From the NCBI GenBank assembly GCA_966211615.1, contig CBIHNZ010000017.1, positions 22,954 to 86,953 of the forward strand: DNA of 64,000 nt. Direction: 5' to 3'. Shown here in pieces: positions 5,390 to 15,790 of the stretch. The DNA comes from an uncultured Sphingomonas sp. GTDB lineage: Bacteria > Pseudomonadota > Alphaproteobacteria > Sphingomonadales > Sphingomonadaceae. The first letter of the stretch is position 1. Every line of letters begins with the position of its first letter. The position numbers and the translations under genes are program-made. Under the pieces are notes generated by a model. The model was not told where the DNA came from. It ran no database searches and worked only from the letters and a program-made list of their open reading frames with translations.

Positions 5390-5670
5390 CTTCCAATGTA
5401 GGATTTCGGCTGCTTTCGTTGCGAGCATGACAATTGCCGCGCCTGCCTTTGCCTGTGTCGACGTCTTTGGCGGCGCCCCGGTGTCGCGTGGATGTGGCAA
5501 AGGTGTCGCGGCCTTGTCGCGTCGGCGCGGCGGAGGTGTCGCGTCCATGGCGCGTCGGCGTGGCGCCGGCGTCGCGCCCGTGTCGCGTCGGTGTCGCGAG
5601 AGTGGCGCTTGGGTGTCGCGTCGCTGTCGCGTCCGAGCGAAAAACCCGGGTACGCGTAAACTTCGTCAAT
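5390..5670 (-). repeat. Dispersed intergenic element copy A with 15-unit 11-bp phased array
   Basis: Minus-strand motifs ATTGACGAAGTTTAC (5670-5656) and AAATCCTACATTGGAAG (5406-5390). TGTCGC-like hexamers every 11 bp from 5471 to 5625 on the plus strand. Confidence 0.85.
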
Positions 5671-13149: not shown

Positions 13150-13590
13150 ATGCAGGTCGATTTCTATCATCTTACGCGTGCTCCGCTGGAGCGGGTGCTG
13201 CCGCAGATCACGGAAAAAGTGCTGGCGGGCGGCGGGCGGCTGCTGGTGATATCGGACGATGCGGACCAGCGGGCCAGGCTCGACCAATTGCTGTGGAGCT
13301 ATGCCCCCGAGAGTTTCCTGGCGCATGCGCAGGCGGGTGGCGAGAACGACGCGCTGCAGCCGGTGCTGATCGGCAGCGCGGTCGAGGCATCGAACGGCGC
13401 GCGCAACGTCGCCATGGCGGACGGGATGTGGCGCGAGGAGGCGCTAGGTTTCGATCGCGCCTTCCACTTCTTCGACGAGGAACGGATCGTCGAAGCCCGC
13501 GCGGCCTGGAGGGCATTGACGGACCGCGAGGGCGTCGAGCGGCGCTATTGGAAGCAGAATGACGCGGGGCGCTGGGAGCAGGTGGCCTGA
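13150..13590 (+). CDS. holC: DNA polymerase III subunit chi
   Basis: MQVDFYHL, LDQLLWS...FLAH, ARAAW..L, YWKQ..GRW. Confidence 0.93.
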   Translation: MQVDFYHLTRAPLERVLPQITEKVLAGGGRLLVISDDADQRARLDQLLWSYAPESFLAHAQAGGENDALQPVLIGSAVEASNGARNVAMADGMWREEALGFDRAFHFFDEERIVEARAAWRALTDREGVERRYWKQNDAGRWEQVA

Positions 13591-13646
13591 GCGGCGGAAA
13601 TCAGCGGTTTTTCTCGATTTCGGCGGACGGTCGAGCAATGCGTCAA

Positions 13647-13768
13647 GTTGACACGGTTGACACCTGCCATGTCGAAAAAACTTCCTTCCCGAATTCCGCG
13701 CGTTTTGAAGACCTCGACGATGAGAAAGAGCAGGTCCGTCGATCGGCCCTGAAATCCTACATTGCAAG
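13647..13768 (+). repeat. Dispersed intergenic element copy B (no internal array), followed by a 13-bp tandem duplication
   Basis: GTTGACACGGTTGAC 13647-13661, AAAGAGC 13725-13731, AAATCCTACATTGCAAG 13752-13768; GCAAGGTGATTGG twice at 13764-13789. Confidence 0.75.
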
Positions 13769-13923
13769 GTGATTGGGCAAGGTGATTGGGCAAGCTGGTC
13801 GGATCACCGGTGGAGGGTGACGATCGTTCGGGGGCGGGGCGTGCTCCGGCTTGCATCGGCACCGTCGCGGGACTAGAGAGCCGCGACTTTTCCACAACCC
13901 CAAGACACAGGAGCCGCACGGCC

Positions 13924-14346
13924 ATGGCCGCGACCCGGACCTTTTCGATCATCAAGCCCGATGCCACCCGCCGCAACCTGACCGGTGCGGTCACCAAGAT
14001 GCTCGAGGAAGCCGGCCTGCGCGTCGTCGCCTCCAAGCGCATCCAGATGACCAAGGAGCAGGCCGAGGGCTTTTACGGCGTGCACCGTGAGCGTCCGTTC
14101 TTCAACGACCTCGTCTCGTTCATGATCTCGGGCCCGGTCGTGGTCCAGGTGCTCGAGGGCGAGAACGCGGTGCAGGCGAACCGCGACATCATGGGCGCGA
14201 CCAACCCGGCCAATGCCGATGCCGGCACGATCCGCAAGGAACTGGCCGAATCGATCGAGGCGAACTCGGTCCATGGTTCGGACAGCGAAGAGAATGCGGC
14301 GATCGAGATCGCCTATTTCTTCAAGCCGGAAGAGATTGTCGGCTGA
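13924..14346 (+). CDS. ndk: Nucleoside diphosphate kinase
   Basis: [32 protein letters not shown]. Confidence 0.98.
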
Positions 14347-14388
14347 GCCGATGCCGTCCCTCTCGAATGAGGGACGGAAGCAATTGAG

Positions 14389-14420
14389 AGGGTCGGGGCC
14401 TTCGGGTCTCGACCCTTTTT
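14389..14420 (+). terminator. Intrinsic terminator of ndk
   Basis: AGGGTCGGGGCC-TTCG-GGTCTCGACCCT followed by a T run; a second hairpin (CCGTCCCTC/GAGGGACGG) lies at 14354-14377. Confidence 0.85.
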
Positions 14421-14470
14421 CTTTGGACTGTGCGGCGCGCGCCAGAAGTGGGTGATCCGCTCGCCTACAA

Positions 14471-14748
14471 GTTGCCGAAGTTGACTCGAAGGGCGGGGTG
14501 GAATCTTCCTCTCTCAGAGGCGCCGTGGCGCGCGCGCCCAGAACGCGACGGTAACGCGACAGCAAAGTCACATCTGTGCGCCAGCCATGCAACGGCGACG
14601 CGACAATGAGGGGACAACGACGCGCCACCTACGCGCCACCGACGCGACGATGGCGCCGTGCCGGCGCGGGTGCTTCAATCCACGGTTCAAAGAGCGGCGC
14701 CATCGAAGTCGCCGCTGCAGCCGAGCAGGCTAAATTCTACATTGCAAG
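14471..14748 (+). repeat. Dispersed intergenic element copy C with 11-unit 11-bp phased array
   Basis: GTTGCCGAAGTTGAC 14471-14485; GCG(A/C)C(A/G)-like hexamers every 11 bp from 14534 to 14644; AAAGAGC 14689-14695; AAATTCTACATTGCAAG 14732-14748. Confidence 0.85.
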
Positions 14749-14914
14749 GCCGGATGCGATACGGGAGCATTGACGGCTTTCGGCCCAATCTCTGCCCTCA
14801 GCGCGTCGCTTCGATGACGTCTGTTTTGGCCCCAAGCGAACCCCAGATTGTGCTACGTTCGCGCATCCTAGCTGGGCGTGTGCTCAGGACTGATGCCGGA
14901 CAATCGTGCTCGTG

Positions 14915-15790
14915 ATGCTACATGTCACCAACGGCGAAAGCGCAGGAGAGTCTCTGCGTCGCAGCGGCGTACCGGGGCGCGTGATCGCGTGGCGGGATGT
15001 CTTGCACGAAGGTCCGGTGCCGGCGGGTTTGACGCTTGCGGGCATGAGCGAGGTGCGCGCGCGCTTCCTCGCGCAGTGGGACCCAAGATCGTTTCCTGCG
15101 GTCGCGGCGAGCTTCGACGAACGCGACGGTGCGCTCGGTTCGGCCCGCCATGTGGTGCTTTGGTTCGAGCACGATCTCTACGATCAACTGCAGTTGTTGC
15201 AGATTCTCGAGGCGCTTTCGAACGAGCCTGACACCGCGGTCGACATGATCTGCATCGATGCGTTTCCCGGCATCGTGCCATTTTACGGCCTCGGCCAGCT
15301 TACGCCGATGCAACTGGCGTCGCTGTGGCCAAAACGCCAGCCGGTCACTGCAGAGCAGTACGCGCTCGGCGCCCGCGCGTGGAAAGCCTTCACTTCGCCC
15401 GATCCCGGCGCGGTGCTCCAACTTCTCGCAACGGATATCGGCGCGCTCCCGTTTCTGGGCAACGCACTGCGGCGTTTGCTCGACGAATATCCCGCGCCTC
15501 CCACCGGCCTGGGGCGCACTGAACGGCAGCTCCTGCAAGCCGTCGCGCGCGGCGCCCGCAGCTTCGCCGAGCTGTTTCCCGCCAATGCCGCGGGGGAGGA
15601 GGCGAGCTTCATGGGCGATACGACGGTGGAATCGCGCCTCGCGGCCCTTATCCGCGCCCGCACCCCGCTCGTCACGCCGGAGCCCTACACGCTGACCGCG
15701 GCCGGCCAGCGCGTGCTCGCCGGCGAGGCCGATGCCCGTCAGCTCAACGGCATCGACCGCTGGATCGGCGGCGTGCACTTCAAAGCATAA
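14915..15790 (+). CDS. DUF1835-domain protein
   Basis: MLHVTNGESAG, WRDVLHEGPVP and WFEHDLYDQLQLL are typical of DUF1835. Confidence 0.8.
   Translation: MLHVTNGESAGESLRRSGVPGRVIAWRDVLHEGPVPAGLTLAGMSEVRARFLAQWDPRSFPAVAASFDERDGALGSARHVVLWFEHDLYDQLQLLQILEALSNEPDTAVDMICIDAFPGIVPFYGLGQLTPMQLASLWPKRQPVTAEQYALGARAWKAFTSPDPGAVLQLLATDIGALPFLGNALRRLLDEYPAPPTGLGRTERQLLQAVARGARSFAELFPANAAGEEASFMGDTTVESRLAALIRARTPLVTPEPYTLTAAGQRVLAGEADARQLNGIDRWIGGVHFKA

Follow-up and report, generated by a model that had tools for sequence, protein, structure and literature searches.

An 11-bp phased intergenic array in a Sphingomonas genome and its relation to a one-gene cassette for a terminase-like HTH protein

BOX elements of Streptococcus pneumoniae are built from boxA, tandem boxB and boxC, and dispersed repeats such as BOX, BrickBuilt and MIRU have been known for decades, with, to our knowledge, no identified protein partner or parent gene for any of them. 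Sites of the OmpR/PhoB family consist of 6–7 bp direct repeats at an 11-bp pitch; among these, pho boxes are arranged head-to-tail with about seven conserved and four free bases, in two to six units at the promoters of the regulon, and their word CTGTCAT contains the TGTC that also occurs in the core of the array described here. The BrickBuilt MITE of Porphyromonas gingivalis is composed of 23-nt units without spacers (PMC4596501). In the parC site of plasmid R1, ten 11-bp direct repeats, in two sets of five, lie beside the ParR gene, and ParR binds cooperatively, with about one dimer per 11-bp iteron, at sites that overlap its gene's own control region (PMC2241845). In the rings formed by small terminases, neighbouring HTH motifs are spaced by roughly one B-DNA turn, and a wrapping of about 100 bp of pac DNA around the ring has been proposed; sets of direct repeats mark the SPP1 pac at the terS gene itself, and the DNA-binding domain of the SF6 small terminase has little sequence specificity (PMC4737164).

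The array considered here lies downstream of ndk in a 64,000-nt stretch of DNA from an uncultured Sphingomonas sp. (the window; its source genome is referred to as G000, and the closest relative of that genome as G010). A literature search yielded no description of a dispersed repeat linked to a terminase-like HTH gene with an array of its own, and searching for the letters of the motif returned only chance eukaryotic matches.

The element downstream of ndk

Is the phasing more than chance? The 11-bp phased repeat after ndk is confirmed as real. Eleven hexamers listed in an earlier note on this DNA (in order, GCGCCC, GCGACG, GCGACA, GTCACA, GCGCCA, GCAACG, GCGACA, GGGACA, GCGCCA, GCGCCA and GCGACG) are present as written, one per 11 bp from 14534 to 14644. 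At lags 11, 22 and 33, the self-identity of 14523–14655 amounts to 0.60, 0.52 and 0.48, respectively, compared with 0.15–0.35 at other lags, and the top 99-bp window of the array attains 0.63 at lag 11. When 14461–14750 was subjected to 2000 dinucleotide-preserving shuffles and every lag from 5 to 24 was scanned, the maximum identity was 0.535 and the observed value was reached in 0/2000, so that shuffled GC-matched DNA, which the note had named as its own potential counter-evidence, does not show similar phasing. In-phase core matches numbered 10, against a shuffle mean of 2.7 and a maximum of 6. Scanning all 5.26 Mb of G000 for windows with a lag identity of at least 0.58 gave 13 strong windows at lag 11 and 12 at lag 22, as opposed to 0–2 at the majority of lags not divisible by 3, and all 13 lag-11 windows adjoin the end motif, whose core is CCTACATTG. 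Two further statements of the note agree with the data: The GCGAC strand points towards CCTACATTGCAAG in 17/17 array-bearing copies, and two members of the family, copies B and C, flank ndk.

The array is part of copy C, an element of about 14470–14800 that belongs to a mosaic intergenic family and whose natural strand, for all parts described in the following, is the minus strand. Its terminal direct repeat (14470..14485; AGTTGCCGAAGTTGAC on the plus strand, GTCAACTTCGGCAACT on the natural strand) corresponds to the 3′ end of the cassette discussed below, and this GTCAAC-N3-GTCAAC word terminates the array-bearing copies in G000 as well as many full gene-plus-array cassettes in other species, with variants such as GTCAGCTTCGTCGG. 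Between the terminal repeat and the array is a G-rich/CT-rich hairpin region (14490..14529), the last part of which reads CTCAGAGGCGC (14513–14523) and which has compensating sequence differences in other array-bearing copies. The array itself (14531..14651) comprises 11 units. The consensus of the array family is GACGCGACACC on the plus and GGTGTCGCGTC on the natural strand, with a core of GCG[A/C]C[A/G] or, on the natural strand, [T/C]G[T/G]CGC. Adjoining it is the linker that takes the place of the gene in gene-less copies (14652..14731), containing GGTTCAAAGAGC (14684–14695), a GC hairpin (14694–14715) and GAGCAGGC, and then the end motif (14732..14749; AAATTCTACATTGCAAGG on the plus, CCTTGCAATGTAGAATTT on the natural strand), whose equivalent in gene-bearing copies is the putative promoter or operator region of the HTH gene. 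An upstream tail (14750..14800) containing ATTGACGGCTTTCGGCCCAAT (14769–14789) completes the element; it is common to copies C3, C6, C8, C32 and C79, and the only shared sequences past it are unrelated REPIN-like hairpins. GTCCGCAACTGGG, a relative of the tail word, is found upstream of the motif of one HTH gene in G010. A coding reading of the arrays was rejected: The natural-strand ORF of copy C runs for about 25 codons before a stop, and the length differences among linkers are not multiples of 3, while some arrays, for example that of copy A, are open in one reading frame.

On one side of copy C, ndk (nucleoside diphosphate kinase; 13924..14346, plus strand; Pfam NDK, E = 1e-54) possesses its own terminator hairpin 3′ of the gene (14390–14421). 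On the other side, an accessory gene (14918..15790, plus strand; Pfam DUF1835), to which the natural strand of copy C is antisense, has no ortholog in 10 genomes of the same genus. Synteny 3′ of ndk is broken, with a convergent gene following in G010 and another, different gene in G001, which together with the lack of DUF1835 orthologs places copy C where synteny breaks between core and accessory DNA. Copy B (13647..13794, minus strand), upstream of ndk, is an array-less member of the family with a counterpart at the same place in G010. A 13-bp tandem duplication, two times GCAAGGTGATTGG at 13764–13789 (TRF score 62), starts within the end motif of copy B and is not present in the G010 ortholog. 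Copy A (5390..5670, natural strand plus) bears an array of 15 units and represents another subfamily.

The element family and its gene-bearing relatives

About 81 copies of the end-motif core are found in G000 where a hand estimate from base composition predicts about 3, and 80/81 are located outside called genes. An array accompanies 17 of the 81, always in the same polarity and with ~5–15 counted units between fixed ends. In the orientation of the earlier note, in which the end motif reads GAAATCCTACATTGCAAG, a direct repeat resembling TTGACGAAGTTGAC and a G-rich hairpin open every array-bearing copy, and the array-less ones have one of several alternative left modules instead. Convergent gene pairs are favoured as context (38/75) and divergent pairs avoided (7/75); 58/75 copies have their natural strand co-directional with the gene just upstream, whose stop codon typically precedes the motif by 1–60 nt. 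Counted by exact motif, G000 has 57 copies, G010 40 and five other genomes 1–15, with none in most of the genus, and the core at its 11-bp pitch was detected in 19/151 genomes of the genus, whereas a control with the reversed pattern scored zero in every genome.

The ends of the element are the ends of a small gene cassette, a relationship that is new in this analysis. Six of the eight paralogous HTH genes of G000 have the motif 25–94 nt upstream (binomial 1e-16), oriented opposite to the reading of the earlier note, and the paralogs share the signature RxDGWTxxRQxxFLxxLAxxGxVxxAAxxxGMSxxSAYxLRRR. The same pairing of motif and gene recurs in G010, G009 (4/9 motif copies), G003 (its sole motif copy) and G102. 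By eye, at least six gene-bearing copies have TT(G/C/T)CAA, about 17 nt, a variable −10-like hexamer, 7 nt and ATG, the remaining ones differing in the spacing of the −10-like hexamer or having a longer leader. This geometry suggests a putative promoter of a leaderless mRNA in which the conserved word TGTAGGATTTCG would form the spacer; a sigma-70 consensus scan of 13550–15000, copy C included, called no promoter. At its 3′ side, each HTH paralog has a left module of a kind known from gene-less copies. Left modules mostly end in two 8–9-nt direct repeats, many of which fit GTNAMYTTY, and the other 3′ modules of gene-less copies (the GCAAAGTGCACG palindrome, GGTAGCCGGTTACC..AAAGTC repeats and GGTAAC repeats) flank other paralogs on the 3′ side.

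Several further observations concern the surroundings of these genes and elements. A second promoter-like word, TTTCCTACACGAACCAAATAGGTCAAC, precedes HTH genes of several species and one G000 paralog (G000 C8:57040-57240; upstream regions of L120, L121, L123, L124, L125 and L130); its TCCTACA core being the reverse-complement orientation of TGTAGGA in the motif, this shared core may function as an operator in either orientation and not as part of a promoter. One 280-aa paralog (G000 C18:91784-92626) has two tandem terminase-like HTH domains, an arrangement also found in G010:C24. About 60–90 nt past the GTCAAC-type end of at least eight array-less copies (C1:27945, C9:41370, C25:23254, C28:6658, C39:39675, C51:27147, C71:8930 and C27:52753 in G000) lies a near-perfect palindrome, TTCAACCGATCGGTTGAA, which looks like a further module of the element family. 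Two other hairpin repeat families, GTCACCCCGG..CCGGGGTGAC REPIN-like doublets and CCCTCTCCCC..GGGGAGAGGG hairpins, populate similar convergent intergenic sites and sometimes replace the element (G000 C16:87200-87470 and the C22:3350 region; G010 L104, L026 and L035).

The full-length, array-bearing cassette of G000 (C29:58488-58817) consists of the motif, a 110-codon HTH gene with its ATG 20 nt past the motif, an array, a hairpin region and a GTCAAC-type repeat, with GAGTCAATTTCGCCAAG 3′ of the array. Its array is already in phase inside the last codons, where CCTGTCGCGCC-type units encode the protein tail APVAPAARR. G017 has the same gene–array arrangement at a different locus, and searching array-positive genomes with the C29 protein retrieved an ortholog in 15/16, at 60–73% identity. 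For C29-type genes from 15 further species plus G017, we scored 11-bp-periodic stretches within 200 nt after the stop codon. Such a stretch follows 16/20 C29-type genes versus 18/4589 called G000 genes (Fisher 5e-33), and the gene is present in 17/19 array-positive versus 0/30 array-negative genomes (Fisher 2.6e-11), counts that are not phylogenetically independent, although the cassettes nevertheless reside at several different loci. Arrays are visible by eye in 9/9 inspected downstream regions, including those of all four sub-threshold genes, and overall a C29-type gene is directly followed by an array in G000 and at least 16 other species.

What kind of protein does the cassette encode? The HTH family matches PHROG 4044 'terminase small subunit', with E-values from 2.5e-6 (C29) to 1.4e-18 (the C54 paralog), and aligns with the true TerS of G000, which adjoins TerL; by these two comparisons, its members are predicted to have the N-terminal HTH DNA-binding domain of TerS. 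Pfam Sf6_terminase matched one paralog, below the cut-off, and NCBIfam and PDB sequence searches gave no matches. An AlphaFold model of the C29-type protein (15 sequences; mean pLDDT 80, >90 over the fold) has helices at 36–49, 52–58, 63–72 and 77–94. Foldseek found no significant structural neighbour of this model in the PDB (best E = 0.5), and 'terminase-like' is thus a statement about sequence profiles. A central oligomerisation domain is absent, since C29-type proteins stop about 40 residues past the HTH, in one long helix, and no large terminase lies near the C29 gene, whose neighbours are a glyoxalase gene and small ORFs. Elsewhere in G000, an isolated TerS–TerL pair occupies C14:86273-88110 (large terminase gene, C14:86273-87595) with no portal or capsid gene adjoining, and the same pair with the same upstream sequence exists in G010 (L093). 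An apparent 'array' of 0.91 identity in G010:C71 (L093 1984-2181) was discarded as a poly-G run at a contig end; this run, inside the large terminase gene, mimics strong 11-bp periodicity and is almost certainly an assembly artefact.

How do the elements spread? In G010, orthologs of copy B and of the C39 and C64 copies are present, and the locus of copy A has a family member that lacks an array. Two other loci are without the element there, one having a different hairpin repeat (C36) and the other two abutting convergent genes (C6). Copies have therefore been gained or lost since the two species split. The linker is nearly base-for-base common to copy C and its sisters C79_184, C1_286337 and C8_89318, with close variants in further copies, and this near-identity suggests that gene-less elements may have multiplied as such. 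The C6 and C36 presence/absence sites show no target-site duplication. In place of terminal inverted repeats, the element has two words unrelated to each other, CTTGCAATGTAGGATTTC and GTCAACTTCGTCAAC, and a repeat search gave no inverted pair that brackets copy A and, close to copy C, just one attributable to chance. A MITE was rejected on these grounds, and for want of a transposase-encoding relative, as full-length relatives encode only the HTH protein. Nor do the long HTH paralogs appear to be hidden transposases: No recognisable catalytic domain could be read in their translated C-terminal extensions, of which the Pfam scan covered that of the 411-aa G000 paralog. The motif contains GTAG, with an adjacent perfect hairpin in one subfamily only; REP or REPIN elements with a RAYT were rejected, PF01797 having no match in G000 and matching in control genomes. 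As at type II partition centromeres, the array adjoins the gene of its putative binding protein in 17 species. This class (parC/ParR) was rejected as well, there being no ParM, ParA or TubZ at C29 and the protein being modelled as HTH, not ribbon-helix-helix.

Array descent, core constraint and a candidate partner

The earlier note had regarded the array of copy C as independent. Its nearest paralogs, however, are C79_184, C1_286337 and C8_89318, at 67–68% identity over the whole element. Copy C and C79_184 have the ordered run ...GACAGC-AAAGTCACATC-TGTGCGCCAGC-CATGCAACGGC-GACGCGACA... in common, much of it also occurs in C1_286337, and the atypical units GTCACA, GCGCCAG and CATGCAAC stand in the same order in copy C and its sisters. 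This array was therefore inherited as a block, and its independence does not hold. Where arrays of paralogous or orthologous copies differ, the gaps measure exactly 11 nt or whole units; one orthologous locus has at least 12 units in G000 versus 8 in G010, and the G017 array contains three identical units side by side. Slippage thus does occur and keeps the phase automatically, as does any gain or loss of whole units from a common ancestral array. Consequently, conserved phase, which the note had taken as an argument for selection, can be maintained without any selection.

The same note had held that recent slippage would not suffice, and on this point the units support it. The 17 arrays contribute 162 units, in which G4, C5 and C8 are 95–100% conserved, positions 2, 7 and 9 are two-state, and positions 1, 10 and 11 are close to background. 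In 48 homologous unit pairs, the substitution rate is 0–0.08 at positions 4, 5, 6 and 8 and 0.29–0.40 at positions 1, 10 and 11. Units are as alike within arrays as between them (6.7 of 11 positions), and adjacent units are slightly less alike, so that neighbours are no closer to each other than distant units are. Of the two targets of selection that had been proposed, protein binding gains support from the linked HTH gene, and DNA geometry finds none, there being no run of 4 or more As or Ts. A predicted protein-binding role of the array, by way of that gene, has strong indirect support.

Array composition also varies with the protein. Genes with HA in the presumed recognition helix (..SRSSA-HA..) are followed by almost pure GTCGC arrays (5–12 GTCGC versus 0–3 GGCGC), HR genes, that of G000 among them, by mixed GTCGC/GGCGC arrays, and two NR genes by purely GGCGC arrays (11–13 versus 0–1). 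In the model, H67 and R68 occupy the fifth and sixth positions of helix 63–72, the third helix and presumably the one for recognition. In the protein tree, HA genes form a basal grade, HR genes a derived clade and NR genes are nested within HR. The variable core base (TGTCGC or TGGCGC) hence tracks two predicted recognition-helix residues, a suggestive covariation that comprises two evolutionary steps and is confounded by descent.

Together, we infer, with a probability of roughly 0.55, that the array offers the C29-type HTH protein a multi-site platform, to which it would bind here in trans. Copy C would derive from a small cassette as a non-autonomous version without the gene, an 80-bp linker having taken the gene's place, and this form would have multiplied after the replacement. 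The full cassette, read on the natural strand, would start with a promoter/operator-like motif, CTTGCAATGTAGGATTTC, and continue with an HTH gene of about 110–140 codons related to the small-terminase DNA-binding domain of phages or gene transfer agents, an 11-bp array whose first units encode the last residues of the protein, and a hairpin region with the GTCAAC-N3-GTCAAC direct repeat. The array would provide docking sites for the cassette's own protein, presumably one 6–7 bp core per helical turn; because an HTH protein of the array type is encoded only once in G000 (C29:58488-58817), copy C and the 15 other orphan arrays would have to be bound in trans. Phase would then persist as arrays gain and lose entire units, and the core as non-binding units are dropped, whichever role in the cell such binding may have.

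The most serious competitor, to which we assign a distinctly lower but still appreciable likelihood, is a neutral minisatellite, that is, a slippage-prone module of a selfish mosaic repeat that has no sequence-specific partner and accompanies the HTH gene only as another part of one mobile unit. A hitch-hiking array in a mobile cassette would likewise produce linkage and co-occurrence; arrays are optional in the family, patchy in the genus and variable in length between species and at orthologous loci, as a minisatellite would be, and the exact 11-nt gaps, the three identical neighbouring units in G017 and the arrays without the gene in G010 and G111 fit it equally. Yet neutral turnover does not predict the pattern of core constraint: All 11 positions should be similarly conserved, whereas three are nearly invariant and three free, and neighbouring units should be most alike, which they are not. 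Moreover, the same core recurs across species whose C29-type proteins are only 60–70% identical, and its variable base tracks the recognition helix. Constraint of this kind would also be compatible with binding by another host protein, such as an OmpR/PhoB-type response regulator or a nucleoid-associated protein, and seven conserved plus four free bases at an 11-bp pitch is the layout of a pho box. We nonetheless deem this unlikely, as it accounts neither for the array's place directly behind a single HTH clade in 17 species, nor for its absence from the 30 genomes that lack the gene, nor for the covariation of helix and core.

Alternatively, the array could act as RNA, either as a repetitive 3′ UTR of the HTH mRNA or, in orphan copies, as a non-coding sponge for an RNA-binding protein or a transcript stabiliser. 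Its position directly 3′ of the stop codon in full cassettes makes co-transcription probable, and the prevailing co-direction of copies with the gene just upstream points the same way. Against this improbable reading, the natural strand of copy C folds no better than shuffles (z = +0.41), Rfam 15 identified only a tRNA in the window (the best hit on the element had E = 1.5 and 15 bits in a search up to E 10), and an 11-nt pitch is meaningless for single-stranded RNA. Least probable of all, and in our estimate very much so, is an intrinsically curved or stiff DNA segment acting without a specific protein: The pitch is near one helical turn, but the array, at about 70% G+C, lacks tracts of 4 or more As or Ts, and the conserved positions make up a discrete word rather than a dinucleotide periodicity. 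As an extension of the platform reading, and a long shot, the C29-type protein and its array could serve as a self-contained 'address label' of small-terminase origin, with orphan arrays being dispersed pseudo-pac sites at which the protein recruits the resident large terminase (C14:86273-87595). If true, some parts of the chromosome would be cut and enter gene-transfer-agent or phage particles in preference to others, and the breaks could also let the element copy to new intergenic sites.

Comparison with known systems

The element belongs to none of the systems introduced at the outset: parC, small terminase/pac, BrickBuilt or BOX. With R1 parC, it shares 11-bp repeats adjoining the gene of a small DNA-binding protein, binding being predicted in our case. 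ParR, however, is a ribbon-helix-helix protein that works with the ParM motor, whereas the protein here is of the HTH type with no motor gene nearby, and the array lies 3′ of the gene and recurs as about 17 chromosomal arrays in place of one plasmid site. The relation to the small terminases of SPP1 and SF6 is that of HTH domains connected by sequence profile; in contrast to these, the C29-type protein has neither an oligomerisation domain nor an adjoining large terminase gene, the array follows the gene instead of overlying its start, and a conserved word is kept. In contrast to pho boxes, the arrays have 8–15 units, lie within a dispersed element and are linked to an HTH gene of the non-receiver type.

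In overall build, the family resembles BOX and BrickBuilt: Like them, it is short, non-coding, multicopy and intergenic, has a leader, a tail and, between the two, a variable number of tandem units, and is present in some lineages only. Unlike those of BrickBuilt, its units measure 11 bp, with a conserved 6–7 bp core and free spacers. It further departs from both in that its ends are not inverted repeats, that both ends and the array are shared with a protein-coding cassette, and that array composition tracks the protein of this cassette. Here, the parent of a dispersed repeat is visible as a one-gene cassette encoding a terminase-like HTH protein with its own phased array, and gene-less offspring scatter that array across the chromosome. 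If the predicted binding is true, this would constitute a compact natural protein–iteron pair with three specificity states (HA/TGTCGC, HR/mixed and NR/TGGCGC) and would offer a concrete handle on the origin of such repeats.
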